Positions 4,670 through 25,149 of a stretch of DNA of 64,000 nt are shown here, piece after piece. Source of the DNA: Candidatus Poribacteria bacterium (GTDB taxonomy: Bacteria > Poribacteria > WGA-4E > WGA-3G); NCBI GenBank assembly GCA_022826805.1, contig JAJDUH010000062.1, forward strand, positions 66,060-130,059, written 5' to 3'. A program made the position numbers and the translations under genes. The notes beneath the pieces were generated by a model. It was not told where the DNA came from, made no database searches, and worked only from the letters and a program-made list of their open reading frames with translations. How positions within the stretch are numbered: the first letter of the stretch is position 1; every line of letters begins with the position of its first letter.

Positions 4670-4802
4670 AACATTATCCAACGGGAAAGGTCTCCGTGTC
4701 CCAATAACAATAGACGCGGGGAGATTTCTAAGAAAATAGTGATAAACATCTTTTACTTTCAACAGCTAATAGCAAGTTTCAACTTGCAAGTGGTGTCAAA
4801 AA

Positions 4803-8325: not shown

Positions 8326-9174
8326 TTAGATTGTCACGGTTTGGGGAGCCTGTGCCAAGTCCAGGTTGTGCGACTTCGCCCATTCTTCTCCAGCCCAATG
8401 AACGCCGTTCGGATCTTCTCTGCCTTTCGTATCTGTGGATGCACCAAGGAACTGCCGACCAAGGTCGTCCAGGCCCTTCACCAATTTCGCTTCGGGTTGT
8501 AGCGTATCGTTGTAATATCGTAGATAATAATCAGGTTTAACCCAACGATAGTGGTACCCATAAATGACTACTTTAGAGATATTTTTTCTGAAATTCAGAC
8601 CGGCAGCATGGTAGATACGGCTTTCAAATAGAAACGCATCACCTGCCCGGAGCAATGGTTCATCATATACCGGCGGATCGACCTCACCTTCAGGGATGTG
8701 CAACGGTTCCTGCAATCTATTGCTTTGCCGGACAAACCACGTCGCCCCTGAGTTTGGAACGCTGAAATCCGTTAAGCAATAACCTACCTTCAAACCGACG
8801 CGAGGACAGCCTTCGTGTCCAACATCCAAATGTACACCGACATCTCGATGCCAGTTGCGGTTGTCGGGTTTCTCAGGTGCCTGCGGGTGTTTGTAGATAA
8901 GTGCGGTATTCGTAATGTGGATATTTGTACCGAGTAACTGAAGAATCAACGGCACTGCTTTTGACTTTGTTGCCAGATCGGCAAATGCGGACTCTTGAAC
9001 TAAGCCATACCGTCGGTGTGCGTAATAGCCGTGGTATTCAAATGACTCCATGAGTCGATCACCGGTTTTGATCAAGCGACCAACCATCTCACTATCAATC
9101 GCGGAACGCACGATGAGATAGCCGTTGTTATCAAATTCTTGACTTTGTGCCTCTGTCAATTGAACAAATTCCAT
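8326..9174 (-). CDS. Phytanoyl-CoA dioxygenase (PhyH) family Fe(II)/2-OG oxygenase, paralogue 1
   Basis: 282 aa. F..NGY..V..... N-terminus, WHRD...D metal motif, late H (IYHAAG). Paralogue of 21646-22461. Confidence 0.75.
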   Translation of the reverse strand: MEFVQLTEAQSQEFDNNGYLIVRSAIDSEMVGRLIKTGDRLMESFEYHGYYAHRRYGLVQESAFADLATKSKAVPLILQLLGTNIHITNTALIYKHPQAPEKPDNRNWHRDVGVHLDVGHEGCPRVGLKVGYCLTDFSVPNSGATWFVRQSNRLQEPLHIPEGEVDPPVYDEPLLRAGDAFLFESRIYHAAGLNFRKNISKVVIYGYHYRWVKPDYYLRYYNDTLQPEAKLVKGLDDLGRQFLGASTDTKGREDPNGVHWAGEEWAKSHNLDLAQAPQTVTI

Positions 9175-9347
9175 CAGCCTCCTCCTTTATGCTTCAAAAC
9201 GTAGTAGGTTGATAGACACGTGCAAATATGCTATCATAAATGTAAAAGGAAGTCTACTAATATAGTTGTCAGTTCTCGGTTTTCAGTTGGCTGTTAGGGA
9301 TGAGAAAGCATCGGGATTTAGATACCCCTCTTAGAGGGTTATAAGTT

Positions 9348-10904
9348 ATGAATCAATTTCAATCTTGGATTTCGGATACTATCAACACTGCCCGCTCTGT
9401 AGGGCGTAAAAAGAAGGTGGAGCAAAAAGAAGTTACCGACGTGTGCGTTATTGGCTCTGGTGCTGGTGGTGCGGTCGTTGCAAAGGAGCTGGCTGAAGCT
9501 GGACTCTCGGTAATCATTTTAGAAGCGGGAGAACATCACGAGGCAAGTACTTTTGGCACTTATGAACCGGAGATGCTCCGCCGTCTTTTCTGGGACAGCG
9601 GCTTACGTAGCACACGCGACGGCGCGATCGTCATTTCACAAGGTATAGGTGTTGGTGGTTCAACGGTGCACAATCTCTGCTACGCGGTTCGTCTACCCCA
9701 AGCAGTATTGCATAGGTGGGGAGTTCCAGAGGTCTGGTCCCACTTCGACGAGGTGGAGCGAACGCTGGGCGTTACGCAGATGCAAGAATCGGACGTAAAT
9801 GAATTAAATGCTGTTATCCGCTACGGGTGCGAGATGATGCGGTGGCGCGGTGGATTGCAAAGGCACAATCGCGGCGATTGCCCGACATGCGGTGCGAGAT
9901 GTCTCTTTGGATGTCCAAATTCTAAATCTATTCAGACTGAACCAGTGAGAACAGGCAAACAGAGTATGGCGGTTACATATATTCCTTTAGCACTCGCAGC
10001 GGGTGCCCGACTCTACAGTAACTGCGTGGCAGAGAAAATTCACGTGAAGCAGCAGAGAACCGTGGGTGTTTCGGCACGACTACCATTAGGTCTATTGGAT
10101 ATTGAAAGCAAAGTAGTGGTGTTAGCCGCTGGTGCCATCAACTCCCCACAACTCTGGTTAAAAAGCCAACTCCCGAACGCGAATCGACGGGTGGGAAAAA
10201 ATCTCCACCTGCATCCCGCAGTTTTCGTGGGCGGAATTTTCAACGAAACTATTGATGGACATCTTGGCATCCCACAAAGCTACTATATCGATCAGTTCCT
10301 CGACTTAAAACGTGCGCCAGACAGCGGGTACCTGCTGATGCCTGCGTTCGGTTCACAAATGATCGTTGCGGCAAGCCTGCCGGGATTCGGCAAAAGCCAT
10401 CGAGAACTGATGGAGCGTTACCGCCACACCGCTGCGCTTCTCGTCCTTTTACACGACAGAACAACTGGACGCGTATCAATAAACCACAAGGGAATGCCCA
10501 ATATCTCATACCGTTTGCGGCGTTCGGATAAAGAGGTATTGGTGGAAGGAGCGATTAACGCTGCCCGCTTGCTTTTCGCTGCAGGTGCAACAGAGATTGT
10601 CATGCCTTATACAGAACATATCCCCATCAAAACAGAAACAGACCTCGAAATTATTCGTCAACGCGGCATTGTGCGAAACGATATTATGTTGGCTTCGAGT
10701 CATCCGCAAGGTACACTCCAAATGGGTGAGGAGCGGCGCAATGCTGTCGTTAAGCTTTCCGGAGAATCTCATGCGGTGGAAGGTTTATTTGTCGCTGACG
10801 CGAGCCTCTTCCCAACCTCCATCGGTGTGCCACCGACGTTGACGATCGCTGCGTTTGGCAGACACATCGCAGGTCGGATAATTGAGAGTGACATCGTGCA
10901 GTAG
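9348..10904 (+). CDS. GMC family FAD-dependent oxidoreductase
   Basis: 518 aa. FAD fingerprint VIGSGAGGAVVAKELAEAG, C-terminal GMC signature region (H....GT..MG, FVADASLFP). Confidence 0.85.
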   Translation: MNQFQSWISDTINTARSVGRKKKVEQKEVTDVCVIGSGAGGAVVAKELAEAGLSVIILEAGEHHEASTFGTYEPEMLRRLFWDSGLRSTRDGAIVISQGIGVGGSTVHNLCYAVRLPQAVLHRWGVPEVWSHFDEVERTLGVTQMQESDVNELNAVIRYGCEMMRWRGGLQRHNRGDCPTCGARCLFGCPNSKSIQTEPVRTGKQSMAVTYIPLALAAGARLYSNCVAEKIHVKQQRTVGVSARLPLGLLDIESKVVVLAAGAINSPQLWLKSQLPNANRRVGKNLHLHPAVFVGGIFNETIDGHLGIPQSYYIDQFLDLKRAPDSGYLLMPAFGSQMIVAASLPGFGKSHRELMERYRHTAALLVLLHDRTTGRVSINHKGMPNISYRLRRSDKEVLVEGAINAARLLFAAGATEIVMPYTEHIPIKTETDLEIIRQRGIVRNDIMLASSHPQGTLQMGEERRNAVVKLSGESHAVEGLFVADASLFPTSIGVPPTLTIAAFGRHIAGRIIESDIVQ

Positions 10905-11000
10905 CGACACGCTTCTACGCATCTAACTATGGTGATTTATAATTACTATGCAGCCTGAACCGGCGAGGTTAGGAAACCTCGCTTACCGAGGGGAAGTTTA

Positions 11001-11972
11001 ATGATTGAGTCAATTCCATACCTTTCACTTGGTAATTTCCCCACTCCTGTGCAGCACCTCTCAAACCTTGAGCACGCTCTTGGTTTGAAATCACTCTGGA
11101 TAAAACGGGACGATCTGAGCGGTCAATTGGGCGGCGGCAACAAGGTGCGAAAATTGGAGTACATGTTCGCAGCAGCACAAACATATCCCAACGGCGGTGA
11201 AAAGAAAACGCTTTTCACAATCGGTCCGACAGGTTCTAATCACGTCCGAGCGACAGCCGTGTACGGCAAAGCGTCGGGTTTTCGTGTGGAATGTTTGTTG
11301 TTTAAACAACCGCGTACCGAATATTCCGAAACAAACTACCGCACAATTTGTGAAAATGCCACACAGGTCTACGAGGTGCGTCACATGAGCACCATGTTTG
11401 CCCGTTACGCGTATGAACAGGTGAAAACAGTGCTTGGGATTGGAAGGGAACGCTATTTTATCCCGGCGGGCGGTTCCTCTCCACTCGGTTCTATCGGTTA
11501 TGTGAAAGCGGTTTTAGAACTGAAATCGCAGATCGAAGCGGACATCTTGCCAGAACCACGGTTTATTTTTGTGCCGGTGGGGACTTGCGGCACTATCGCG
11601 GGCTTAATAGTCGGTGCAAGACTTGCAGGACTGCGAACCCAAATTGTCGGTATTCGTGTTGCTGATGGAGTCGTCGCCAATTCGTGGGCGATTTCTCGTA
11701 TGGTGCGGCGCATTCTGCGCCTCGTCGGTGCAGCGGATGCTGATTATGTCAACCCACGCCGCATTGAACTCTGGCACAATGATTTCGGAAAGGGATATGC
11801 CATCCCAACGGAAGCTGGGATGCGCGCAGTTGCGCTGATGGCTGAACACGAAGGTATCACACTTGAAAACACCTATACTGGCAAAACATTAGCAGGACTT
11901 GCTCACTATATCAAGGCACATGGATGGGAAGGTGAACACATACTATTCTGGCATACGTACGGTGGTAGATAA
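11001..11972 (+). CDS. PLP-dependent ACC deaminase / D-cysteine desulfhydrase family enzyme
   Basis: 323 aa. Hallmark GGNKVRKLEY PLP-lysine motif. The rest of the fold looks intact. Confidence 0.85.
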   Translation: MIESIPYLSLGNFPTPVQHLSNLEHALGLKSLWIKRDDLSGQLGGGNKVRKLEYMFAAAQTYPNGGEKKTLFTIGPTGSNHVRATAVYGKASGFRVECLLFKQPRTEYSETNYRTICENATQVYEVRHMSTMFARYAYEQVKTVLGIGRERYFIPAGGSSPLGSIGYVKAVLELKSQIEADILPEPRFIFVPVGTCGTIAGLIVGARLAGLRTQIVGIRVADGVVANSWAISRMVRRILRLVGAADADYVNPRRIELWHNDFGKGYAIPTEAGMRAVALMAEHEGITLENTYTGKTLAGLAHYIKAHGWEGEHILFWHTYGGR

Positions 11973-12006
11973 AAATTAAAGAGCACGAATCTAAAAGGAA
12001 AAATAT

Positions 12007-13131
12007 ATGGGAACTGACTTTAATCAAGCAAGTTTTCGGTTGGCAAGCGGCACCGAAAAACCCAAACCGAGCTTCGTTCAGGCGGGTATGCCTATAATTG
12101 ACTGCGATCTTCATAACCGACTTCCATCACCTCAGATGCTTTATCCGTACCTACCCGATTACTGGTGCGACTATTGCGAAGAATCTGGCTTCCCTGGACC
12201 GGATGCGAACGACTATCCAGAGGGTGTTCCAACCTCAACACGACCAGAAATCACACATCCGACAGAAGATCGTCCGGCGTCGGATTTGGGACTCCTACGT
12301 AAGCACGCGCTGGATTTCTGGGAGGTTGAATACGGCATACTTACCTGTGGGTTTAGGGTGCAGAGCGTACATAACGAAGACCTTGCGGCAGCACTCGCCT
12401 CGGCAGTCAATAACTGGCAGATTGAGCATTGGCTTGACCCGGAACCGCGTTTACGCGGGTCTTTGATTGTTCCAAGCCAAAATCCAGAACTCGCCGTGAG
12501 AGAAATTGAGCGTTTGGGTGGACACTCCGGGTTTGTTCAGATAATGTTACCTGCTCGATCACAAGCACCTTACGGCAATAGACGCTATCATCCCATCTAC
12601 GAAGCAGCTGTGCGTCATGAACTTGTCGTCGGTATCCACTACGGCGGTGCGCCGGGCCTGCCCCCAACATCTGTAGGGTGGCCCTCGACCTATTTGGAGG
12701 AATACGTCGGTATGTCGCAGGTATTTCAGGCACAGGTACTCAGTCTCGTGTCAGAGGGTGCTTTCGACCAGTTTCCTGATTTACGCGTCTCCCTCATCGA
12801 AACTGGCGTTACATGGATGCCTTCGCTTATGTGGCGATTCGATAAAGAGTGGCGTGGTTTGCGCGGGTTAACACCGTGGGTGAAGCAACTACCGTCGGCG
12901 TATATCCGAGAACATATTCGCATGACGCTTCAACCGATTGATGCACCGCCGACAGCGGCAGAACTGCTGCAGATTGTGGGGCAACTCGATTCAGAAGACA
13001 TGTTGATGTTTTCAAGCGATTACCCACACTGGCACTTCGATTCGCCTGATGCGGCTTTTCCTGCGCAGCTGCCCCAATCGTTGGCACGCAAAATTTTGTC
13101 TGAAAATGCACGGGAATTCTATCGCCTCTAA
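12007..13131 (+). CDS. Amidohydrolase_2-type metal-dependent hydrolase/decarboxylase, paralogue 1
   Basis: 374 aa. N-terminal IDCDLHN, internal GIHYGG, C-terminal SDYPHWHFD. Paralogue of 20505-21584. Confidence 0.7.
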   Translation: MGTDFNQASFRLASGTEKPKPSFVQAGMPIIDCDLHNRLPSPQMLYPYLPDYWCDYCEESGFPGPDANDYPEGVPTSTRPEITHPTEDRPASDLGLLRKHALDFWEVEYGILTCGFRVQSVHNEDLAAALASAVNNWQIEHWLDPEPRLRGSLIVPSQNPELAVREIERLGGHSGFVQIMLPARSQAPYGNRRYHPIYEAAVRHELVVGIHYGGAPGLPPTSVGWPSTYLEEYVGMSQVFQAQVLSLVSEGAFDQFPDLRVSLIETGVTWMPSLMWRFDKEWRGLRGLTPWVKQLPSAYIREHIRMTLQPIDAPPTAAELLQIVGQLDSEDMLMFSSDYPHWHFDSPDAAFPAQLPQSLARKILSENAREFYRL

Positions 13132-13167: not shown

Positions 13168-14001
13168 CTAACCCTCAAATAGCGCAAGATACGCCTTCAT
13201 TTTCGTCTCGAAACGCCACGCGAGATCAAGATTCAGTATCTTATCATACTGTCGAGCTTCGTTGAAAAAACACGTTGTTGCTGCTCTCAAGGCGTTCATA
13301 ATATCAACGCCTTTTAAACTTAATACCAGTGTCTGCTCAAGATCCGTCAAAAAATCTTCTGGCATCTGATCCACGTGTCGAAAACGTTTTGTTTCCAATT
13401 CCTCGCGTAATCCCCGCAGCTCAATGACTCGGTCCCGAATTTGTTCCAGTTCATATATGGCTCTCCAAGGTTGCTGTCGTTGAACGGCAATAGCGGCATG
13501 CTTGATGCAGTGCCAGATTGAGCTAAGTCGAAATCGATAGGCTTCTTCCAAATCGGGCTTCGGCCTGTTCTCCCAACTGGATTGCATAATACTCTCAATC
13601 CTCCCTGAACGATCAAGTATAGTGTTCCAACGATTTCTCGTTGCCCGGAGATCGTTCAAACAGAGGAAGCACAGATCAATCTCCAGAAAGTTTTCAAGGA
13701 AAAATACCCACAGATAGATGTTGGGCGCTCTTGGTGACTCAAGCGAATGGAACGTGGGCAGCATTTGGCGAATCTTTTCACCCCATTCCTGGAAAGCAGG
13801 TCTCACATCGTCAGCCGAGGTTGTAACCGCACACAAATCTATATCGGAGTGGTCGTCCTCAAAGCCTTCTGCGCCGGATCCGACGACCAAGAGACCTACA
13901 AGGCGTTTATCACTTCGTAGGGCATTCAGGAGACGATCAAGGATTGCTTCACGGGTGGCAGGGGAGTAATGCGTGTCTGTTTGGTCAGGACGTTCCATCA
14001 T
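13168..14001 (-). CDS. Nucleotidyltransferase-fold protein (ANT/KNTase-like)
   Basis: GS...D.D NTase signature (VVGSGAEGFEDDHSDIDLCAV) plus a helical C-terminal half. Start moved to MMERPDQ, since the first 17 codons of the track ORF look like read-through. Confidence 0.6.
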   Translation of the reverse strand: MMERPDQTDTHYSPATREAILDRLLNALRSDKRLVGLLVVGSGAEGFEDDHSDIDLCAVTTSADDVRPAFQEWGEKIRQMLPTFHSLESPRAPNIYLWVFFLENFLEIDLCFLCLNDLRATRNRWNTILDRSGRIESIMQSSWENRPKPDLEEAYRFRLSSIWHCIKHAAIAVQRQQPWRAIYELEQIRDRVIELRGLREELETKRFRHVDQMPEDFLTDLEQTLVLSLKGVDIMNALRAATTCFFNEARQYDKILNLDLAWRFETKMKAYLALFEG

Positions 14002-14279
14002 AGTATATACTCGCGATTTCTGGGTTTTTAAAATTATACAACAATGTCGCAACAGTTATCAAGAACGGTCAGAGTCTCCCTATCACACTTTTCCTTGAAA
14101 TGAACCTCAAAGGGAACATATAATTGGAGAAAGGATTAAGATAGCGTTATGATGCAAGAGAGCCACCAACTTTCACCGTTAACGGATCTCTTTTTTCCTC
14201 ACATCTTAATTGCTTTCTGTATTCACTATCCACACGAGTCACTACGAAAATAATCGCAAAACCCCTTTACCAAAAGGAG

Positions 14280-15647
14280 ATGGCTATGGCAACTTACGCA
14301 ACACTTGAAGCAAAAGTTGATCAACTGTTCGCTGAATGGAAGTGCCCGGATTCGCCTGGTGCTGCCTTAGCGGTTACCAGAGACGGTGAAGTTATCTATC
14401 AACAGGGATACGGAATGGCGAATCTGGAATACGACCTCCCAATCACAACGACCAGTATCTTCGATATCGCCTCAGTGTCCAAGCAATTTGCAGCGTTCGC
14501 CATCGTTACGTTATCGCACGAAGGGAAGTTTTTATTAGACGACGACATCCGAACATATCTGCCCGATATGCCGGATTTTGGAAACATAATCACAATTCGA
14601 CATCTTTTGCATCACACCAGCGGATTACGGGATTGGGTACAATCGCTTGTCATTGCGGGTGTTGGTATGGAGGATGTCATCTCGTTTAGACACATCCTGA
14701 AAATGGCGAGACATCAGAACACGCTCAATTTTGAGCCAGGCAGTGAGTTTTTATATAGCAACACGGGCTACAATCTGTTGGCGGAAATCGTCGAAACGGT
14801 AACGGGAGATTCATTCAGAGAATGGACGGACACCCACATTTTCAAACCTCTTGGCATGACTAACAGCCATTTTCACGACGACCCCCAGATGATTCTGAAG
14901 AACCGAGCGTATTCGTATCAAGCTGTCGAAAACGGTGAGTTTAAGCATGCTGTCAACAACACAACTGCTCTGGGATCAAGCTCTCTTTATTCAACAGTGG
15001 AAGATCTAGCGAAATGGATCCTGAATTTTGACAATACACGCATTGGCGAACAGACAGTGATTGAACAGATGCACCAATGTGGCGTGCTTAATAACAGGGA
15101 GCAAATTAAGTATGCCCTCGGGCTGAATATTGATACGTATAGCGGCTTGCAAACGGTTGGGCATAGTGGATCATGGCGTGGATTTCGGAGCCATTTGATG
15201 CGCTTTCCAGATCAGAAATTTGGCGTTGTCATCTTATGCAATCTGGATACTTTTAATCCGCTCCGTTTGGCAGAACAGGTGGCGGATATCTATCTTGCCG
15301 ACCTCCTTGCTCCCGTAGAAACAGCCGAGCCAGATAAAGCAGCAGAATCCGTTGAAGACACCAAACCCGAATCGTTAGCCCCAGAACAACTGCTAGAATT
15401 TGAAGGTGATTATTATACCGAAGAACTCGACACAACCTACACTATCAATGTGCGTGGAAATCAACTTATGGCACAACACATAAGGCACGATGATATATTG
15501 CTAACCTACGCTGGCGATCATTTCCTTGGGGACGCGTGGTTTTTTCCAGAGGTGCATTTTACGCGAGATGAGACCGGACGGGTTATAGGATTTAAGTTGA
15601 CAGGCAACCGAATCAGAAATCTATATTTTGAGAGAAAGACATATTAG
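14280..15647 (+). CDS. Beta-lactamase-fold serine hydrolase (class C / esterase / D-aminopeptidase-like)
   Basis: SxxK (SVSKQF), YxN (YSNTGYN) and HSG (VGHSGSW) motifs in the canonical order. 455 aa with a C-terminal extra domain. Confidence 0.85.
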   Translation: MAMATYATLEAKVDQLFAEWKCPDSPGAALAVTRDGEVIYQQGYGMANLEYDLPITTTSIFDIASVSKQFAAFAIVTLSHEGKFLLDDDIRTYLPDMPDFGNIITIRHLLHHTSGLRDWVQSLVIAGVGMEDVISFRHILKMARHQNTLNFEPGSEFLYSNTGYNLLAEIVETVTGDSFREWTDTHIFKPLGMTNSHFHDDPQMILKNRAYSYQAVENGEFKHAVNNTTALGSSSLYSTVEDLAKWILNFDNTRIGEQTVIEQMHQCGVLNNREQIKYALGLNIDTYSGLQTVGHSGSWRGFRSHLMRFPDQKFGVVILCNLDTFNPLRLAEQVADIYLADLLAPVETAEPDKAAESVEDTKPESLAPEQLLEFEGDYYTEELDTTYTINVRGNQLMAQHIRHDDILLTYAGDHFLGDAWFFPEVHFTRDETGRVIGFKLTGNRIRNLYFERKTY

Positions 15648-15727
15648 TAGTTCATCTTTCTCCAAATTTTACCTTCAAATAGTTTCGGTCAAAATTGGAC
15701 ATCATCTGGTTTTAGGTGTAATCTTGT

Positions 15728-16096
15728 TCATTGACGGATTCTAATTCGATGTACTTCAATCAAGAAAAGCTTACCTTTATAATGCCCCATATCAGGATTG
15801 GCGGAAAGATAATCTGTCAAGCGTGACACAATTTGTGGTAAGACTTCAGGGTGATTCCTAACTTGAAGTGCTATAATGCCCTGATAGTTACTTGGTGGAT
15901 AATCAAATATATTGGCGAAATCGCCATTTAGGGATATAAGAATCATCCCCAGCTCTTGTGCCTTTGAAATTACAACTAAATCTGGTGATTCAATAGGAAG
16001 GTAATCTCTAAGATACCAAACTTCGTAATCTGCATCACGAAGAGTTTCAATAACAACAGTAGGAACACACTGATCTGCGAAAAACCGCAATCCCAT
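15728..16096 (-). CDS. DUF5615 (PIN-like, Mut7-C related) putative toxin
   Basis: 122 aa starting MGLRFFADQCVP. Its start overlaps the stop of the DUF433 gene, the usual DUF433/DUF5615 pairing. Confidence 0.7.
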   Translation of the reverse strand: MGLRFFADQCVPTVVIETLRDADYEVWYLRDYLPIESPDLVVISKAQELGMILISLNGDFANIFDYPPSNYQGIIALQVRNHPEVLPQIVSRLTDYLSANPDMGHYKGKLFLIEVHRIRIRQ

Positions 16097-16320
16097 TAGG
16101 CAACTTCCTCAAATTCCGCCAATTCTCGCGCGTAATCAAGACAGGCTTGAATTTGGATCGTTTTGATATCAGGGAAGTCAGCGATGATTTCGTCGGTGGT
16201 ACGACCCGCCGCCAAATATCCGAGGAGAAGACTTACAGAGATTCTTGTTCCCTTGATACGTGGTTTACCTCGCAATATCTCCGGTGTGCTAACAATATGA
16301 TCTCTCCAATGAATTGGCAT
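16096..16320 (-). CDS. DUF433 putative antitoxin
   Basis: ILRGKPRIKGTRISV...LAAG.T.DEI..DFP....I.ACLDYA is the DUF433 core. I chose the start at M43 of the track ORF (GGAGGG 6 nt upstream). 16338 and 16446 are alternatives. Confidence 0.7.
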   Translation of the reverse strand: MPIHWRDHIVSTPEILRGKPRIKGTRISVSLLLGYLAAGRTTDEIIADFPDIKTIQIQACLDYARELAEFEEVA

Positions 16321-16453
16321 GTCCATCCCTCCAGCCATAGAAATTATCTCATTAACAGAATAGCACATCCGTAACCCGTTTTCAAACGAAATTATTTCCA
16401 CTTCGTTCCAAACCTTTGTCAAAAACCTTATAAGTTCTCCAACCACTTTTTTC

Positions 16454-16481
16454 TTGACACCTGAATAAAATTCTATATAAT
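16454..16481 (+). promoter_or_regulatory. Near-consensus sigma70 promoter ahead of the nuclease-M-R-nuclease cassette
   Basis: TTGACA (16454-16459), 16-nt spacer, TATAAT (16476-16481). About 95 nt upstream of 16576. Confidence 0.6.
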
Positions 16482-16575
16482 AAAAGAAATTAAACCATTA
16501 GTTTATAGAGAGTTCTTGGTAAACCTCACCGCAATCAGGTTTTCGTTGGAATTGAAAGGAATGATTTGTTAAGCG

Positions 16576-17568
16576 ATGACACTTGAGGAACATATTGACG
16601 ACATACGTGAAGGTTTAGGAGTAGATCGCTATCCAAACGAGGCAGCAGTTTCCCAAGGAATCGTCCTGAGGCTGCTCGGTGCCTTGGCTTGGCCCACGTT
16701 CGATACTCAAGTTGTTGCTCCTGAATACGGAGTGGAAGGAACGCGGGTAGACTTTGCCTTATGTCATCCACCATCAAAACCGCGCGTTCTCATTGAGGCG
16801 AAGCAAGTTGGTAACATTAAAGGGGCAGAGGAACAATTATTTGGATATGATGCTCGTGTTAGAGTGCCAATCGCGGTACTGACCGATGGTGGGGGATGGC
16901 ACTTCTTCCACCCGACAGGGGAAGGGACATGGCAGGAACGTAAAATCTGTGAATTAGATTTCATCGCAGGAGATAGGGCAGAAAATGCCGAGAGGCTCAA
17001 CAGATACTTGAACTATGAGTCAATCCGTACGGAGAAAGCTATTGAGGCAATCAAGGAGGACTATGAGAAAGTCGTTCAGCAAAGACAAGTTGCAACACGG
17101 TTACCAGAAGCGTGGAACAAATTGGTAGAGGAAGCAGATGAGTTTTTGTTACATGCGGTGGCAGAGAAAACTGAAAGTTTGTGTGGGTATAGACCTACCG
17201 ATGAACAAGTATTAGCTTTTCTAAGAAGCTTGAAAATAGAGTCTAAGCCAAACGGGAATGGAAATAGAGTCTGGAACCCAGGCCTTCTTGTTACCATGCA
17301 CAACGGAGAAACAATTAACCATAAAGTTTCAGCAATTACTTTTGTTGAGGTAATTGAAAAATTAGGAATAGATCGAGTAAGAAATCTTAACAAAGTATAT
17401 ATCATCCCTCTCATATCAACTTCCAAAAATTCCAGATACACACAACGTAAGTCTGGTCGTTACTACATAATGACTAATACGGATACAAAGACCAAAAAGA
17501 GACTTCTTGAGGAAATTGCAGCGGACCTTCAAGAACCAATGAAAGTAAAAATAATTGAGAAATCATGA
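16576..17568 (+). CDS. PD-(D/E)xK nuclease-fold protein (HsdR-N-terminal-like domain) with unique C-terminal half, paralogue A
   Basis: 330 aa. RVDFAL...LIEAKQ (D...ExK) followed by PIAVLTDGGGWHFF, the pattern of the type I restriction-enzyme R N-terminal domain. The first ~165 aa are paralogous to 19565-20512. Confidence 0.65.
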   Translation: MTLEEHIDDIREGLGVDRYPNEAAVSQGIVLRLLGALAWPTFDTQVVAPEYGVEGTRVDFALCHPPSKPRVLIEAKQVGNIKGAEEQLFGYDARVRVPIAVLTDGGGWHFFHPTGEGTWQERKICELDFIAGDRAENAERLNRYLNYESIRTEKAIEAIKEDYEKVVQQRQVATRLPEAWNKLVEEADEFLLHAVAEKTESLCGYRPTDEQVLAFLRSLKIESKPNGNGNRVWNPGLLVTMHNGETINHKVSAITFVEVIEKLGIDRVRNLNKVYIIPLISTSKNSRYTQRKSGRYYIMTNTDTKTKKRLLEEIAADLQEPMKVKIIEKS

Positions 17569-17736
17569 AATTGTCAGGTAGGATAGTGGTATAGCCTGAT
17601 ATCTATCAACAGGAACCTCTACCAAAAAATCTTTTTATATTCATTTCTTATCCTGTCTCATGTAGGAGAAGAGTTTCATATACAATGGTCGTAAAAAAAT
17701 TAATGTATTTTGAGCAGTCCTGAGGAAGTAATCTCC

Positions 17737-18852
17737 ATGATCGGAATAGAAAACATTGACTACCTTTCAAATCAACTTATCACATATATAGGCAATAAGC
17801 GTTCGCTATTGGGCCATATAGGCAAAGCAGTTATACAAGTAAAAAGACGAATAGGCAAGTCCCACCTTCGTGTATTTGATGCTTTCAGTGGCTCCGGTAT
17901 TGTCTCCCGTTTTATGAAAGCCCATGTTTCGTATCTTGCAAGTAATGATTTTGAGGACTATGCTGCGTCAATTTCACGATGTTATCTCCAAAATCACAGC
18001 ACAGTTGATTTGATTACAATTGCCAGAATTGTTGAGGAGCTCAACAATCGTGTGGACGAACCAACTTCTAAAGGATTTATTGAGAAACTTTATGCCCCTG
18101 AGGATGAATCGAGAATTACACAAGATGACCGCGTTTTCTACACCGGCAATAATGCCCGCCGACTGGATAACTATCGTAGAATGATTGAAGACTATCCTTC
18201 AAACTTCCGCGATTCGCTATTAGGGCCCCTTCTCAGTAAAGCGTCTGTCCACTCAAACACTTCAGGGGTATTTAAGGGCTTCTATAAGAACAAGATCACT
18301 GGGATTGGACAATACGGGGGCACTAACTCCAACGCACTAAGCCGTATTAAAGGAAAAATAGAACTGGAACCACCTGTGCTAAGCCAATTTGAGTGTGATT
18401 ACGAAGTGTATCATGACGACACGAATAAAATCGCTAGTCAAATCAAGGATCTTGATTTGACTTATATTGATCCTCCTTACAATCAACATCCTTATGGTTC
18501 AAACTACTTTATGCTAAACTTACTTGTGCATTATAAAGAACCTACAGAGATAAGTCGAGTATCGGGTATTCCAAAAGGCTGGAAACGTTCGGGCTATAAT
18601 GTTCAAACAAAATCTAAAGAACTATTTAAGGATCTACTGCATACACTTGACACACGCTTTTTCCTCATTTCCTTTAATAATGAAGGGTTTATTTCCCCAG
18701 ATGAAATGCGTGATATGCTCCGAAAAATAGGCACTGTTGATGAGTTTGAGATTCGGTACAACACATTTCGCGGGTCAAGGAATCTAAGAAACCGAAACAT
18801 TCATGTTACTGAACAACTATTTCTTGTAGAGAGGAATTTCAATGGCAAATAA
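17737..18852 (+). CDS. N6-adenine DNA methyltransferase (motif I -> target-recognition region -> DPPY order)
   Basis: YIGNKRSLL, FDAFSGSGIVSRF (FxGxG) and LTYIDPPYN motifs. ATG at 17737 is preceded by GAGGAAG; the track start at 17710 is a TTG without an RBS. 11-nt overlap with the downstream endonuclease gene. Confidence 0.85.
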   Translation: MIGIENIDYLSNQLITYIGNKRSLLGHIGKAVIQVKRRIGKSHLRVFDAFSGSGIVSRFMKAHVSYLASNDFEDYAASISRCYLQNHSTVDLITIARIVEELNNRVDEPTSKGFIEKLYAPEDESRITQDDRVFYTGNNARRLDNYRRMIEDYPSNFRDSLLGPLLSKASVHSNTSGVFKGFYKNKITGIGQYGGTNSNALSRIKGKIELEPPVLSQFECDYEVYHDDTNKIASQIKDLDLTYIDPPYNQHPYGSNYFMLNLLVHYKEPTEISRVSGIPKGWKRSGYNVQTKSKELFKDLLHTLDTRFFLISFNNEGFISPDEMRDMLRKIGTVDEFEIRYNTFRGSRNLRNRNIHVTEQLFLVERNFNGK

Positions 18853-19561
18853 AGATCGACTGCGAGAATCGCGGGCAGACACTATAATCAATGCAACGGC
18901 TAAACAACAAGAAACTGAACTTATGAAGGCACTTTACAAAGTTGAGGAATATTTGACAGGCAGATTTGCCAAGGGGATCACCTTAACTCATACAAAGCAA
19001 TGGTATCTGAAGGATATTATTCATGAACTGAAACCATATTTCCCCGACATTGATTTACATTATCACTTTGAGAAAAGCCATATTCGACCAGATGGTGGTA
19101 TCCTTGGAATAAAGAGTGTCAAGGACAATACCCTAACTTATCCAATTCTAATTTCGGAAGTCAAAAATCAGGGAACGAATGATATGCGTGCTAGGGAAGG
19201 AAAGCCCAAGCAAGCAAAAGGAAACGCTATTGAACGGCTTGGAAAGAACGTAATAGGATTTCGCACCGCATTGTTGCGCGAAAGTATCTTTCCGTTCGTT
19301 TGCTTTGGATACGGTTGTGATTTTGAGGAAACATCCTCAATTTTAGACAGGGTATCAACTATGGCAATGTTTGGCAAACTCAACAAGATTTACCTCCACA
19401 ATGAGGAAGATGGCCGATTCAACCGTGGTAGTTTCTATTTCCGTGCTGAGGAATGGACGGCCGATGAAATGTTCGATATTATGAAAGATATTGCGGAACG
19501 CGCTGTACTATACTACTTCTCTAAATACCGTGAAAATCATTTCATTGATTTTTCTAATTGA
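18842..19561 (+). CDS. EcoRI-family type II restriction endonuclease
   Basis: IRPDGGILGIK ... ILISEVKNQGTND ... AKGNAIERLGKNV ... FPFVCFGYGCDF aligns block by block with EcoRI (IKPDGGIVEVK ... VLVAEAKHQGKD ... AAGNAIERSHKNI ... FPYVLFLEGSNF). Confidence 0.85.
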   Translation: MANKDRLRESRADTIINATAKQQETELMKALYKVEEYLTGRFAKGITLTHTKQWYLKDIIHELKPYFPDIDLHYHFEKSHIRPDGGILGIKSVKDNTLTYPILISEVKNQGTNDMRAREGKPKQAKGNAIERLGKNVIGFRTALLRESIFPFVCFGYGCDFEETSSILDRVSTMAMFGKLNKIYLHNEEDGRFNRGSFYFRAEEWTADEMFDIMKDIAERAVLYYFSKYRENHFIDFSN

Positions 19562-19564
19562 ACA

Positions 19565-20512
19565 ATGACACTTAAAGAACATATTGACGATATACGCGGA
19601 AGTTTAGAAACAGGTCGCTACCCAGATGAGGCAGCAGTTCGTCAAGGCGTTGTGCTTAGGCTGCTTGACGCCCTGGATTGGCCAATATATAGCCCGCAGA
19701 TTGTCTATCCTCAGTACCCGGTCGGGGAAGGGAAAGTAGATTTTGCTCTGTGTCATCCCGAATCAACACCCCTCGTTTTTATTGAGGTCAAACAAATTGG
19801 AAACATCGAAGAGGCGGAACAGCAACTTTTTGAATACGCTTTTCACGAAGGAATTATCCCAATTGCTGTTCTCACGGATGGACAGAAATGGCGTTTTTTT
19901 CACCTGATGGGACTAGAATATTATAGAGAGCTAAAGGTCTGTGAATTAGACTTCATTAAAGGCAACAGTGAGGAAATTGCTGATTGCCTTAACATATACC
20001 TAAACTACCAGTCAATCCGTAAAGGTGAAGCAATTCGTAGAATAAAAAAAGACTATAAGAGAATCTATAAGCAGAAAATTCAGTGGAAACCTGTTCCACC
20101 AATACCGCCAGAACTACATCACGTGATTGTACCTCCTAACGCAGAGGACAACGAAGTTGTTTTCAATAAGACTGCCTGGAAAGTTGCTCACATGAGATGG
20201 TTGGGGGATGAGTGGAGAGGCTCCGTCCCGGAGGGAAATGTCGGAAAGGCAATACAGGTAATCGAATCTTCCTTGGAGAGCATCCAGGGAAGCGATATTT
20301 ACGAGCACTGCGTCAAACATCTTATGCTGACCACTCGTACAGCTGAGGAGTTCAATAAGTGGGTATGCCCACGCTCCGGTTTCTATAAGAAGAATATGCC
20401 AGAGAGGTTCGGTCGTCGCATGAGGTTATCGCCTGAGAGAGTCCAGCAAATGGTAGATGAAATAAAAAAAGAACACAACAGCCCTGCGCAGGGGAGCAAT
20501 AAGAATGCGTAA
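19565..20512 (+). CDS. PD-(D/E)xK nuclease-fold protein (HsdR-N-terminal-like domain) with a different C-terminal half, paralogue B
   Basis: 315 aa. KVDFAL...FIEVKQ, PIAVLTDGQKWRFF. N-terminus MTLKEHIDDIR versus MTLEEHIDDIR in paralogue A. Starts 3 nt after the endonuclease stop. Confidence 0.65.
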   Translation: MTLKEHIDDIRGSLETGRYPDEAAVRQGVVLRLLDALDWPIYSPQIVYPQYPVGEGKVDFALCHPESTPLVFIEVKQIGNIEEAEQQLFEYAFHEGIIPIAVLTDGQKWRFFHLMGLEYYRELKVCELDFIKGNSEEIADCLNIYLNYQSIRKGEAIRRIKKDYKRIYKQKIQWKPVPPIPPELHHVIVPPNAEDNEVVFNKTAWKVAHMRWLGDEWRGSVPEGNVGKAIQVIESSLESIQGSDIYEHCVKHLMLTTRTAEEFNKWVCPRSGFYKKNMPERFGRRMRLSPERVQQMVDEIKKEHNSPAQGSNKNA

Positions 20513-21584
20513 AACAGATATACCCAAACAGAAACAGAGGCCATCCGTTATTGATTGTGATGTTCATAACACCCTCGCTTCTGAGACGGTGTTGTACCCG
20601 TATCTCTCCGAACGTTGGCGCAAGCATCACAGCATGGTAGGAACAACTGATCGCGTCGGGGCATATATTCCGCGTGCGCATCTTTATGGTGCAAGATACG
20701 ACGCGTGGACTCCTTCTGGACACCGTCCTGGATCCGACCTCGACTTCTTACGCGAGCAACTACTGGATGCATTTAACATCGAATACGGTATCCTTAACTG
20801 CCTAACGCCGGTCTGTGAAATGCCGAACCTCGCTTTTGCAGCGGCATGGGCACGAGCCGTGAACGACTGGCAAATCGAAGAGTGGCTTGAAAAAGAACCG
20901 AGACTTCGTGCTTCAATGATTGTGGCATGCGACGATGCAGAGTTTACCACTACTGAGATTAATCGGCTTGCAGGGCATCCGGGATTTGTGCAAATATTGC
21001 TGCTTGCTCGAACAATGGAACCGTTGGGACGACGTAAGTACTGGAAGCTGTACGAAGCGGCGGTGGAGCATGACCTTCCGATCGGGATTCACTTTACGGG
21101 TGTTGGTGCAGGACCGATTACTGCTGTCGGTAGACCTTCGCACTACATCGAAGATCACGCGGGAATGACACAGGCGTTTCAGACGCAGGTAACCAGTCTC
21201 GTTTGCGAAGGTGTTTTTGAACAATTTCCGACGCTGAAGGTCGTGTTAATTGAAGGTGGTTTCGCTTGGCTACCACCCTTGATGTGGCGACTCGATCGAG
21301 CATGGAAAAAACTACGCGGTGAAGTGCCAGACCTGAAACGGCTGCCCTCCGAATATATCCGTGAGCATTTCTGGATTACGACCCAACCGATCGAAGAACC
21401 TCCCAAACAAGAATACTTCGATCAACTTCTCGCGCATCTTAATTTAGACGATAAGCTAATGTTTGCAACCGATTATCCGCACTGGGATTTCGATTCGCCG
21501 GAGCAGGCACTTCCGAAAAGCCTTGCGCCACCTCTCAAACGGAAAATCATGGCAGAAAATGCGCGGGCATTTTATCAGTTCTAA
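20505..21584 (+). CDS. Amidohydrolase_2-type hydrolase, paralogue 2
   Basis: 359 aa. IDCDVHN, GIHFTG, TDYPHWDFD. Collinear with 12007-13131 and about half identical by eye. Confidence 0.7.
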   Translation: MRKTDIPKQKQRPSVIDCDVHNTLASETVLYPYLSERWRKHHSMVGTTDRVGAYIPRAHLYGARYDAWTPSGHRPGSDLDFLREQLLDAFNIEYGILNCLTPVCEMPNLAFAAAWARAVNDWQIEEWLEKEPRLRASMIVACDDAEFTTTEINRLAGHPGFVQILLLARTMEPLGRRKYWKLYEAAVEHDLPIGIHFTGVGAGPITAVGRPSHYIEDHAGMTQAFQTQVTSLVCEGVFEQFPTLKVVLIEGGFAWLPPLMWRLDRAWKKLRGEVPDLKRLPSEYIREHFWITTQPIEEPPKQEYFDQLLAHLNLDDKLMFATDYPHWDFDSPEQALPKSLAPPLKRKIMAENARAFYQF

Positions 21585-21645
21585 CCCGATTACTTTACCA
21601 ATGCTGCCCCTTGGTGGACGGCACAGGGACTGTGCCTACTACCTT

Positions 21646-22461
21646 TTAGATTGTCACGACGTGCGGGACTTCTTCAAACTGCAAACCGTGTGCTGCTGCC
21701 CAATCGGCGATTGCATTCCCATCAGCACCGAGAAATTGCTTGCCGAGGTCATCAAGATTTTCTCTCACCTTCTCTTCAGGTTGCAGTTTGTCATTGTAAT
21801 ATATCAGGTAAGGCTCGGGTTTGAGCCATGCATAATGGTAGCCGTAAATAACCACTTTGGCGACTTTGTCCGTAAAGTTGACACCAGCGGTATGATAGAT
21901 GCGGTTTTCAAAGAAAAATGCGTCACCAGCACGTAGGACCGGCTCATCGTAAGGTTCAATAGGATCGATTTCGCCTTTGGGAATACCCAACGGTTCGCCT
22001 AACTTGTGGCTTTTTGGTACAAACAGTGTCCCGCCTGAATTCGGCACGGTGAAATCCGTCAAGCAGTATCCCACCTTCAAACCGACGCGCGGACAATTCT
22101 TGTACCCAATGTCCAAAAACAGTCCAGCATCCCGATGCCATCCACGGCTCTCCGGTTCCTCAGGCGGTTGTGGATGTTTGTAGATGAGTGCTGTGTTCGT
22201 GATGTGGATGTTTGTGCCGAGCAGTTGGATCACCAATGGAATCGCTTTGGTCTGTGAGGTCAACTCCGCGAAGACAGGTTCCTGCACCAAACCCTCTCGC
22301 TTGTGCGCATAGTAGCCGTCACGCTCAAAAGACGCCATGAGCCTATCCCCTGTTTCTGTCAAACGCTCTATCATGTCCGTGTCAAGTACTGATCGGACGA
22401 TGAAGTATCCATTCCCCTCAAATTCCTCACGCTGCGCGTCTGTTAACTGGACGAATTCCAT
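21646..22461 (-). CDS. PhyH family dioxygenase, paralogue 2
   Basis: 271 aa. MEFVQLTDAQREEF... is collinear with 8326-9174 (MEFVQLTEAQSQEF...), sharing the block LGTNIHITNTALIYKHPQ, and both end in VTI. Confidence 0.75.
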   Translation of the reverse strand: MEFVQLTDAQREEFEGNGYFIVRSVLDTDMIERLTETGDRLMASFERDGYYAHKREGLVQEPVFAELTSQTKAIPLVIQLLGTNIHITNTALIYKHPQPPEEPESRGWHRDAGLFLDIGYKNCPRVGLKVGYCLTDFTVPNSGGTLFVPKSHKLGEPLGIPKGEIDPIEPYDEPVLRAGDAFFFENRIYHTAGVNFTDKVAKVVIYGYHYAWLKPEPYLIYYNDKLQPEEKVRENLDDLGKQFLGADGNAIADWAAAHGLQFEEVPHVVTI

Positions 22462-23133: not shown

Positions 23134-23874
23134 ATGGCAAGCCAATCCTCAAAAATTGAATGGACAGAATCCACATGGAATCCAGTGCGTGGTTGTACCC
23201 GTGTATCAGAAGGCTGTCGATTTTGCTACGCTGAACGGATAGCAGCGCGATTTTCAGGTGAAGGCTTGGCTTACGAAGGCTTGGCGGAAAATACCATAGC
23301 AGGTCCGCGATGGACAAAAGAAGTACGTACTGTTCCAAAGTTACTTAACGAACCAATGAAATGGAGAAAGCCGCGCCGAATCTTCGTCAACTCCATGAGC
23401 GACCTGTTTCATGAAAAGATTGAATTGACCTATATTCAAAAAGTCTTTTCTGTGATGGAAAAAGCACACTGGCACCAATTCCAAGTCTTAACAAAGCGGG
23501 CAGATCTACTACTGAAATACAGTCCAAAATTGCTGTGGCCGTCGAACGTCTGGATGGGAGTCAGCGTTGAAGACAATCGCGTCACACATCGGATTGACGC
23601 TCTCAGCCAAACCGACGCCCACATCAAATTTCTCTCACTTGAACCACTACTTGGTGAACTTCCAAATTTAGCATTGGACGAAATAGATTGGGTTATTGTA
23701 GGCGGCGAGTCAGGTCCCGGTGCACGCGAGATAGAAAAAAAATGGGTTATTGATATCCGAGATCAGTGTGAAAGTGCTAAAGTCCCATTTTTCTTCAAAC
23801 AGTGGGGCGGCAGGCGTAAATCGAAAACGGGGAGAGAACTGGATGGACGGTTTTATGACGAAATGCCGGTTTGA
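23134..23874 (+). CDS. DUF5131 (phage Gp37/Gp68 family) three-Cys-motif protein
   Basis: 246 aa. IEWTESTWNPVRGCTRVSEGCRFCYAE N-terminus is the family hallmark. WVIVGGESGPGAR and FFFKQWGG near the C-terminus. Confidence 0.8.
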   Translation: MASQSSKIEWTESTWNPVRGCTRVSEGCRFCYAERIAARFSGEGLAYEGLAENTIAGPRWTKEVRTVPKLLNEPMKWRKPRRIFVNSMSDLFHEKIELTYIQKVFSVMEKAHWHQFQVLTKRADLLLKYSPKLLWPSNVWMGVSVEDNRVTHRIDALSQTDAHIKFLSLEPLLGELPNLALDEIDWVIVGGESGPGAREIEKKWVIDIRDQCESAKVPFFFKQWGGRRKSKTGRELDGRFYDEMPV

Positions 23875-24754: not shown

Positions 24755-24940
24755 TTACAGCCTAGGAATTCTTAAATCTTTACAGATGTCCCTGGCTAAC
24801 CGATTGTTAATTTCAGTATGCCTCGGTACGACAGTCTTGACATTTAATTCCAAATTGCCCCACACCGAATGATTACCGCCCTCCCGAACTAAATAACATC
24901 CGTGCTTTTTAAGGTGTCGAATTAAGGCACGTCGTTTCAT
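24755..24940 (-). CDS. hicA: HicA mRNA-interferase toxin
   Basis: 61 aa. LIRHLKKHGCYLVREGGNHSVW...VPRHTEI....RDICKDLRI matches the YcfA/HicA pattern. ATGA overlap with hicB. Confidence 0.85.
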   Translation of the reverse strand: MKRRALIRHLKKHGCYLVREGGNHSVWGNLELNVKTVVPRHTEINNRLARDICKDLRIPRL

Positions 24941-25149
24941 ATTGAGATAGAGACAGCCTCATATCCACTTTTAATACGACGACTTGCTTCCTGTCGATTG
25001 AGTTCTAAAATATCTTTAAGTGCACTTCTGATGCTAACCAGCAATTGGTCTTTAGTTCGTTCCTGGCAATTGATACCGGAGATCTCTTGTACGCTGCCAA
25101 TCCACCACCCATCAGCGTACTGAATAAGTGCAGTATAGGTTTGTGCCAT
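24937..25149 (-). CDS. hicB: HicB-family antitoxin (short, UPF0150-like)
   Basis: 70 aa. YTALIQYADGWWIGSVQEISGINCQERT is typical of the HicB N-terminal fold. AAGGAG RBS present. Confidence 0.75.
   Translation of the reverse strand: MAQTYTALIQYADGWWIGSVQEISGINCQERTKDQLLVSIRSALKDILELNRQEASRRIKSGYEAVSISI

Follow-up and report, generated by a model that had tools for sequence, protein, structure and literature searches.

A 64,000-nt stretch of a Candidatus Poribacteria genome (contig JAJDUH010000062.1, positions 66,060 to 130,059, hereafter the window) carries four genes, called A, M, R and B, immediately upstream of an amidohydrolase gene (AH2). M encodes a DNA methyltransferase and R an EcoRI-family restriction endonuclease, and the two genes on either side, A and B, encode PD-(D/E)xK proteins that share an N-terminal domain. 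Comparison with related loci (designated L) makes it probable that M and R are an ordinary, self-sufficient EcoRI-like restriction-modification (R-M) pair, located in a variable island between two old paralogues of a solitary nuclease, and that the four genes are neighbours, not one machine. An initial annotation, made from the window alone, had offered three explanations: that A and B serve a composite defence system as accessory nuclease or sensor subunits, that they are a duplication made when the R-M unit inserted into a gene, or that they act as recombination handles for the M-R module.

The assignment of M and R to an EcoRI-family R-M pair, already made in that annotation, was borne out by profile searches. 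M matched Pfam MethyltransfD12 (PF02086) with 63.9 bits (2.4e-17, cut-off 22) and PADLOC MTase_II (3.6e-108), and its translation contains FDAFSGSG and IDPPYN. R matched Pfam EcoRI (PF02963) with 55.2 bits (7.1e-15, cut-off 22) and PADLOC REase_II (6.4e-19); NCBIfam gave no family for R, nor for A or B. Alignment of R with the EcoRI chains of the PDB (5e-11) extended over about 110 residues, with the PD...ExK and GNAIER segments in register: irPDGGI, lisEvKnqG and akGNAIERlgKN stand opposite ikPDGGI, lvaEaKhqG and aaGNAIERshKN. The roles of these segments are known from EcoRI structures, PD...(D/E)xK being catalytic and GNAIER reading AATT. Because R has this EcoRI-like GNAIER motif, the recognition site is probably of the NAATTN type, and the pair would work as a classical type IIP system, consisting of an alpha-class N6-adenine methyltransferase and an EcoRI-like endonuclease.

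M-R is a self-contained, horizontally mobile two-gene unit, independent of A and B. A scan of one genome per species for relatives of R gave 79 loci, in which A/B-like genes were sought within the 5-6 kb flanks. About 65 of these loci lie outside Poribacteria, in more than ten phyla (Planctomycetota, Dehalococcoidia, Gemmatimonadota, Actinomycetota, Acidobacteriota, Bacillota and others), with R proteins 40-70% identical, and M adjoins R at nearly all of the 79. No A/B-like gene was found by tblastn in the flanks of the 65 or so non-Poribacteria loci, and a hidden Markov model of the shared N-terminal domain gave a single distant match there (L084, E = 8.5e-7). Within Poribacteria, five loci at other chromosomal sites (L019, L021, L022, L024 and L082) have M-R without A, B or AH2. 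Decay of R beside an intact M was also observed: an in-frame stop leaves pieces of 52 and 177/185 aa in L005 (9274-9996) and L006, and an insert of about 1.2 kb interrupts R in L025 (6001-7958).

The domain shared by A and B covers residues 1-171, with 57% identity and 71% positives (E = 3e-65), in agreement with the earlier estimate that more than half of the positions are identical; the C-terminal halves could not be aligned, and had rightly been called unrelated. At the DNA level similarity is about 67% overall and 77% across the first 126 nt, and it begins about 7 nt upstream of each ATG. Only two copies of this segment are present in the window. Pfam HSDR_N was matched by B with 29.8 bits, over the cut-off of 25.1, whereas A, with 18.7 bits, stayed under it; among relatives, however, the family was matched by 69 of 74 A-type (best E = 1e-10) and by all 33 B-type sequences. 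The D...E-x-K signature likened at the outset to the HsdR N-terminal nuclease corresponds to D59, E74 and K76, which are invariant across the 74 A-type and 33 B-type sequences. In the AlphaFold 2 (AF2) model of A, whose mean predicted local distance difference test score (pLDDT) was 89.7, the N-terminal domain was matched by Foldseek to the HsdR N-terminal fragment 3h1t and to the nuclease domains of DrdV and BpuSI (probability 0.85-1.0). The AF2 model of B was weaker (mean pLDDT 73); its C-terminal half is helical in the model and gave no fold or family match in structure and profile searches. Sequence comparison of the A and B profiles with the PDB gave nothing significant, and PADLOC gave no family for either. 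Pfam detected no superfamily 2 (SF2) motor domain (ResIII, DEAD or Helicase_C) in A or B, and no HsdM or HsdS partner was found around the genes in the window, nor among the commonest neighbour families at 50 other loci of the A/B family. Relatives of A are labelled "predicted type IV restriction endonuclease" at JGI. Judged from their domains, A and B would each act alone as Mg2+-dependent DNA endonucleases, with the C-terminal domain choosing the substrate.

By their N-terminal domains, A and B are old paralogous lineages, in which these domains track the different C-termini. Database homologues numbered more than 800 for B and more than 2000 for A, the named ones all from Candidatus Poribacteria. 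Among 220 family proteins retrieved, 159 had the C-terminus of A and 36 that of B, while 25 matched neither over the full length, some having another C-terminus and some being truncated. In a set of 107 sequences, N-domain identity was 70% within a C-domain type versus 61% between types, and the nearest neighbour was of the same type in 106 cases. A neighbour-joining split grouped 30 of the 33 B-type sequences with no A-type sequence.

Scanning with the N-domain alignment gave 80 loci, some 30 at the AH2 locus and some 50 at other sites, and this M-R was present at only three of the 80, in the same genomes as L014-L016. The 50 or so other genes are second or third Poribacteria paralogues, or homologues in Chloroflexota, Acidobacteriota, Desulfobacterota, Gemmatimonadota and other phyla. 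Two open reading frames (ORFs) on each side of 50 such genes were compared with Pfam (193 ORFs), the inner 98 also with PADLOC, and the 25 commonest families were inspected. The most frequent were DUF433, Uma2, DarT/DarG, HEPN, RecD2 helicase, GFO_IDH_MocA, SASA, P-type ATPase, SufS/SufBD and MR_MLE; no DNA methyltransferase or R-M family was among the 25. Away from AH2 the A/B family has thus no association with R-M at this depth of survey, and a loose one with toxin-antitoxin-type cargo remains. The lack of such a link had been named in the initial annotation as a ground for refuting its reading, and as regards R-M this is what was observed. Further Poribacteria paralogues recur beside the RecD2 helicase, beside a P-type ATPase/SASA/GFO_IDH_MocA group and beside other conserved genes (L136, L139, L145; L141, L144, L149, L155, L159; L119, L125, L127, L128), some genomes having at least two to three copies. 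A type I R-M context for these paralogues, guessed from neighbours of about 800, 515 and 380 aa, was discarded when Pfam identified them as P-type ATPase, SASA and GFO_IDH_MocA.

Single, uninterrupted A/B-like genes, whose existence at this locus the initial annotation had thought worth seeking, were indeed found. An A-type gene stands alone, 60-70 nt upstream of AH2, in L011, L012 and about 25 species representatives, and a B-type gene overlaps AH2 in L131, L137 and L147. In L001, the amidohydrolase gene that bounds the island on the left (AH1) is followed further on by a beta-lactamase-fold gene, a PIN gene and then B overlapping AH2, with A, M and R absent. Where M-R is present the arrangement varies. 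The order is A, M, R, AH2 without B in L014 and L023; L005 has A, M and the interrupted R; in L016, L020 and L025, A is reduced to a 5' stump (residues 1-141 or 1-52) beside an intact M, R being intact as well in L016 and L020; and in L003 a frameshifted A stump of about 85 codons precedes M, R, B and AH2. Apart from the window, only L003/L004 have B between R and AH2, and most M-R-bearing loci are without it. Alignment of the region upstream of M revealed three distinct endpoints of the A deletions, all of which retain the promoter-proximal end of A. In the spacers between R and AH2 (first 30 nt after the R stop in L014, L016, L017, L020 and L023), the sequence resembles by eye the decayed start of an N-domain gene, but a relic of B was sought by shuffled local alignment against three B genes and was rejected (p = 0.13-0.99) as a sign that these loci had lost B.

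AH2 itself is mostly 87-94% identical between relatives (79-80% in L105 and L114) and in every case directly follows the nuclease gene or R. The closest R relative (L014, 95%) adjoins an A of only about 66% identity, whereas the closest A relative (L005, about 79%) adjoins an R of 83%, AH2 being about 91% identical in both. By these identities, A, M-R and AH2 have different histories. A-type and B-type genes at the locus diverge to 55-84% identity where AH2 is at about 90%. The base composition of the A-type genes also differs from that of their neighbour: for about 16 of them (L093-L172), the GC content at third codon positions (GC3) was 0.27-0.48 (means of the two halves 0.39 and 0.36), versus 0.51-0.62 (mean 0.58) for the adjacent amidohydrolase. 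In the window, GC3 is 0.31-0.38 in the C-terminal part of A, in M, in R and in the N-terminal part of B, 0.44 in the N-terminal part of A and 0.52 in the C-terminal part of B. This pattern was considered as the scar of an inserted block running from the C-terminal part of A to the N-terminal part of B, and the idea was rejected, since A-type GC3 is low in every genome checked, with or without M-R, and is therefore a property of the family.

Inspection of the 5' ends revealed one recombination event. All A-type genes at the AH2 locus have a common leader of some 60-80 nt, which could be aligned upstream of the A-type genes of L005, L007, L012, L014 and L023, of the A stump of L003 and of the B-type gene of L001. 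B of the window and B of L003 lack it and are directly preceded by the R coding sequence; in both of these A-M-R-B loci, the homology of B begins exactly at the ATG, right after the R stop. Strict typing by diagnostic columns across all A/B genes left three informative columns only, and a direct comparison of L001 with the closely related L003 was used. In its first 45 coding nt, the L001 gene has 5 mismatches with the L003 A stump and 15 with L003 B, whereas in nt 76-180 it has 11 mismatches in 105 positions with L003 B and 32 in 100 with L003 A. On this comparison the L001 gene is an A/B hybrid, in which the A leader and an A-like 5' end of about 45-60 nt are joined to B, the crossover falling at about nt 45-75. 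At least one recombination has hence taken place in the shared 5' segment, from which a regular mobility mechanism does not follow; of the proposal of recombination handles, this one event is the part that stands. The hybrid could have arisen by deletion of the A body, M and R between direct repeats (or the reverse, a Campbell-type integration), and it could equally reflect an ordinary homologous recombination in which a B allele took the place of an A allele. The leader gave no Rfam match when considered as a structured RNA. It is conserved only among genes at the AH2 locus and not among paralogues elsewhere, which points to ordinary conservation of an orthologous 5' untranslated region or promoter.

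A second junction was inspected at the end of R. At 19550-19575 of the window (5830-5860 in L003), CTAATTGAACAATGACACTT, which spans the last codons of R, its stop and the start of B, shares 17 of 17 nt with the end of the leader and the gene start of an A-type gene. The TGA stop of R falls within ATTGAACA, which is also similar to the R 3' end, GATTGAATA, of loci in which R is followed directly by AH2. The R-B junction may, from this resemblance, be a microhomology junction.

The C-terminal domain of A suggests what the A-type nucleases may recognise. Its last 95 residues or so were matched by Foldseek to the C-terminal domain of SeqA on hemimethylated DNA (1iu3_C) with a probability of 0.82 and a target template-modelling (TM) score of 0.49. 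Pfam SeqA was matched by 13 of 74 A-type relatives (best E = 1.3e-6). One relative (P0106) aligns weakly to PDB SeqA 3sk7 (E = 0.027), the loop vMTNNNTqkK being paired with vITNNNTsrK of SeqA; at this position A of the window has YYIMTNTDTKTKK, and the shared pattern is TN(T/N)(D/N)T. In E. coli SeqA, Asn residues of this loop touch the methylated A-T pair. A has neither the N-terminal oligomerisation domain nor the size (about 180 aa) of SeqA, its N-terminus being the nuclease domain. Used alone as a query, the SeqA-like module (residues 232-330, window 17269-17565) retrieved 490 representative proteins, many of which are about 190 aa long with the module at the C-terminus and some of which have two or three tandem copies. 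Ten of the 490 were scanned with Pfam: HSDR_N was found in P0229, the methylase-associated MTaX1 in P0293 and an SF2 helicase core (ResIII/Helicase_C) in P0348, and in the other seven nothing beyond a weak SeqA match or an unrelated match was seen. The module looks like a mobile DNA-reader module of conflict systems. Its presence in A suggests a methyl-adenine-reading nuclease, possibly of a type IV or type IIM-like kind acting at methylated or hemimethylated adenine sites.

The coordinates of the four genes and of their surroundings are given in Table 1.

Table 1. Genes and sites of the A-M-R-B run and its neighbourhood (positions in the window)
Feature	Position	Strand	Remarks
AH1, Amidohydro_2 paralogue 1, left anchor	12007-13131	+	Pfam 1.6e-38; syntenic in L001, L005, L007 and others
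ANT-like nucleotidyltransferase	13168-14052	-	Pfam; island cargo
Beta-lactamase-fold protein	14280-15647	+	Pfam; island cargo
DUF5615/PIN-like and DUF433 pair	15728-16446	-	Pfam; directly upstream of A
Promoter-like site, sigma-70-type	16454-16481	+	TTGACA-16-TATAAT, 12/12 match
Leader of the locus-resident nuclease gene	16518-16575	+	Conserved upstream of A-type genes in relatives
A	16576-17568	+	330 aa; PD-(D/E)xK (HsdR-N-like) domain 16576-17085, helical linker, SeqA-C-like domain ~17269-17565
M	17737-18852	+	N6-adenine DNA methyltransferase, motif I (FSGSG) ahead of DPPY; Pfam MethyltransfD12, PADLOC MTase_II
R	18842-19561	+	EcoRI-family type II restriction endonuclease; Pfam EcoRI, PDB EcoRI, PADLOC REase_II
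B	19565-20512	+	315 aa; PD-(D/E)xK (HsdR-N-like) domain 19565-20074, then all-helical C-terminal domain
AH2, Amidohydro_2 paralogue 2, right anchor	20505-21584	+	Pfam 1.7e-42
PhyH dioxygenase genes	8326-9174 and 21646-22461	-	Outside AH1 and AH2, respectively

The layout first described, four co-directional genes behind a near-consensus promoter, was recovered in the ORF list, head to tail and on the same strand. The M/R overlap of 11 nt, the gap of 3 nt between the R stop and the B start and the B/AH2 overlap of 8 nt were all confirmed. M has an alternative TTG start at 17710, and its ATG start is the one conserved across 17 related loci. The promoter hexamers are also present in L005 and L007. 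No terminator-like site was found on the + strand between the four genes, the sole + strand site (17269-17283) lying within A. A, M, R and B may, on these features, be transcribed together from the promoter of A, which would explain why the A stumps always retain the 5' end. The designation of the run as one operon says little about a shared function, because the co-directional run extends past B into the metabolic gene AH2.

AH1, 4.5 kb upstream of A, is 50% identical to AH2, and between relatives the content and order of the island cargo (13168-16446) vary. The gene sets that flank the island (8326-13131 and 20505-22461) comprise PhyH (on the - strand), a GMC oxidoreductase, a PALP enzyme and Amidohydro_2 on the left, and Amidohydro_2 and PhyH (again -) on the right; the two PhyH proteins are clearly paralogous by eye. 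In L137 (5489-6936), and also in L147, a BrnT toxin gene is followed by an ORF of 371 aa that joins a BrnA-like antitoxin in frame to the B-type nuclease at the second codon of B, which explains the B-type proteins of 365-376 aa seen among the homologues. Upstream of M in L016 (~4796-4895) and L017 (~380-470), a fragment resembles the 3' end of a BrnA-like gene (NEWLRG.MQL). This fragment, by its similarity, indicates further rearrangements that would have joined island cargo to the promoter-proximal region of M. Other mobile-type cargo in the window consists of a HicA toxin gene with a likely HicB partner (24755-25149, - strand) and a DUF5131 (phage Gp37/Gp68-like) gene (23134-23874, + strand).

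These observations can be assembled into the following picture. A hypervariable island lies between paralogous metabolic sets, PhyH to amidohydrolase-1 on one side and amidohydrolase-2 to PhyH on the other. The slot upstream of amidohydrolase-2 normally has one fast-evolving, low-GC3 solitary PD-(D/E)xK nuclease of HsdR-N-like fold without a motor, its C-terminal domain differing by type, SeqA-C-like in A-type and helical in B-type genes. In some lineages an independent mobile type II R-M unit stands downstream of the A-type gene, and in the genome of the window and one other lineage a B-type gene is also found between R and amidohydrolase-2, giving the order A-M-R-B. Occasional recombination in the shared A/B 5' segment would delete or insert the A body with M-R, or swap A and B alleles.

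Several points weigh against such an unconnected neighbourhood. A-M adjacency recurs in several Poribacteria lineages, and a lineage-specific functional link between A and M-R is compatible with the synteny. The 3-nt R-B junction and the overlap of B with AH2 could represent translational coupling with a functional meaning. The lack of methyltransferases beside A/B relatives at the 50 other sites holds for the 25 commonest neighbour families only. Those relatives are kept at fixed chromosomal positions beside housekeeping genes, which is unusual for defence genes, and the SeqA score of the window's own A is 16.6 bits, below the Pfam cut-off of 25.5 bits.

A composite defence system, in which A and B would be accessory nuclease or sensor subunits working with M and R, draws on the compact arrangement of four co-directional, overlapping or nearly abutting genes behind one strong promoter, and on the repeated A-M adjacency at several Poribacteria loci. 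We nevertheless regard it as very unlikely, comparative genomics having largely refuted it: about 65 genomes of many phyla, and the five other Poribacteria loci, have M-R but neither A nor B, B is missing from most loci with M-R, intact M-R stands beside stumps of A that end at three different points, the similarity patterns of A and M-R are incongruent, and A- or B-type genes occur alone at this locus in about 30 species, and at some 50 other loci without a methyltransferase among the commonest neighbour families. Still less probable, to the point of being hardly credible, is an origin of A and B from one gene that was already there and of which the inserting R-M unit duplicated a long target segment. 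L001 does look like an empty site, in that one gene stands where two copies flank M-R in the window, and insertion of this kind is documented for R-M units (PMC2853133). The DNA identity of the copies, however, is only about 67%, their N-domains fall into separate lineages in step with the unrelated C-domains and are not each other's closest relatives, full-length A-type genes are widespread without M-R, and most M-R-bearing loci have no second copy, nor a detectable B relic in the spacer between R and AH2 (all p > 0.1).

That the 5' segment of the shared domain, with the leader, serves as a regular homology handle, through which C-terminal modules or cassettes (the A body with M-R) are repeatedly excised, integrated in a Campbell-type manner or swapped across Poribacteria, is an unlikely explanation. 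The L001 gene, A-like in its leader and first 45 nt and B-like in nt 76-180, speaks for it, as do the start of B homology exactly at the ATG after the R stop in both A-M-R-B loci, the 25 of 220 family members that match neither C-terminal type over their full length, and the incongruent histories of A and M-R. But only one hybrid was found, a single A-to-B allelic replacement explains it equally well, repeats such as A and B of the window, at about 67% identity, are poor recombination substrates, and the N-domains largely co-segregate with the C-domains, so that swapping must be rare. We are more doubtful that A and B are housekeeping nucleases for DNA repair or strand discrimination (a MutH-like role, for instance, for the SeqA-like A-type) that merely stand beside an inserted R-M unit, although in most of the sampled Poribacteria this spot upstream of AH2 has an A- or B-type gene, other paralogues occupy fixed sites by RecD2, the Suf operon and a P-type ATPase, and the catalytic triad is strictly conserved. 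Against this role are a GC3 below that of the neighbours in all genomes checked, high divergence (55-84%, versus about 90% for AH2), recurrent truncations, variable C-termini, and neighbours that include DUF433, BrnTA, DarTG, HEPN and Uma2 modules. Low GC3, fast divergence and repeated truncation fit conflict genes better than housekeeping genes, their fixed positions being unusual for the former. An R-M pair between two old solitary nucleases thus remains our preferred explanation. A more ambitious version, which we hold to be unlikely, is that A-type proteins form a novel group of solitary restriction nucleases, guided to their targets by a SeqA-like reader of methyl-adenine, and that the shared 5' segment is a homology arm by which reader modules and cassettes such as M-R are swapped in a phylum-wide defence hotspot.

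The methyltransferases M.EcoRI and M.RsrI are not known to be of the D12 class with its Dam-like motif order. M differs from them in being of this class, with FSGSG ahead of DPPY, and R is only distantly related to EcoRI, as the short match indicates. Like the EcoRI/RsrI type IIP systems, M-R is otherwise a two-gene unit, with a methyltransferase beside an EcoRI-family endonuclease in which PD...ExK and GNAIER align, and it has spread horizontally across phyla as a pair.

The nucleases A and B belong with HsdR of type I R-M systems in the family and fold of the N-terminal domain. They are, however, proteins of 315-330 aa, and because they have neither an SF2 motor nor HsdM/HsdS partners they do not qualify as HsdR. 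In organisation they resemble Mrr, DpnI-like type IIM enzymes and COG2810 enzymes (predicted type IV restriction endonucleases), each being a single-chain PD-(D/E)xK nuclease with a separate putative DNA-reader domain and no methyltransferase partner; the nuclease motif D59/E74/K76 is intact, as a type IV enzyme would require, and most members of the A/B family have no methyltransferase neighbour. In contrast with those enzymes, the nuclease domain of A is N-terminal and HsdR-N-like and its putative reader is SeqA-C-like, not a winged helix or an SRA domain, while the C-terminal domain of B matches nothing.

With respect to the locus, the E. coli immigration control region (ICR) is a defence hotspot anchored by core genes (PMC12707154). 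The Poribacteria locus is likewise a variable island between conserved core genes, whose R-M systems, solitary nucleases and toxin-antitoxin modules take one another's place from relative to relative; it contains no integrase. Unlike the ICR, it is anchored by two paralogous amidohydrolase/PhyH sets, its cargo includes a beta-lactamase-fold gene and nucleotidyltransferases, and its right-hand slot nearly always belongs to one nuclease family. Three groups of R-M units between direct repeats have been distinguished, namely site-specific integration, insertion with long target duplication, and chance insertion between repeats (PMC2853133; Furuta, Abe and Kobayashi 2010). The window shares with them an M-R unit between two long direct repeats and a related genome with a single copy and no R-M. 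Its repeats are instead old paralogous genes about 67% identical, neither a fresh target duplication nor att sites, and the arrangement fits the third class, chance insertion between repeated sequences.

A tidy four-gene "operon" can thus be the historical accident of a recombination hotspot, which calls for caution when defence systems are sought from synteny in a single genome. Three leads come out of the analysis. One is the island itself, the second a so far uncharacterised family of HsdR-N-like nucleases that lack a motor and whose C-terminal modules, SeqA-like in one case, can be exchanged, and the third one concrete case of recombination between diverged paralogues that flank an R-M unit. 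Neither the island, nor the nuclease family, nor the hybrid changes the current understanding of R-M biology. For Candidatus Poribacteria, whose metagenome-assembled genomes come from sponge-associated and free-living members, the anchored variable island, which they have in common, could be a natural catalogue of defence cargo.

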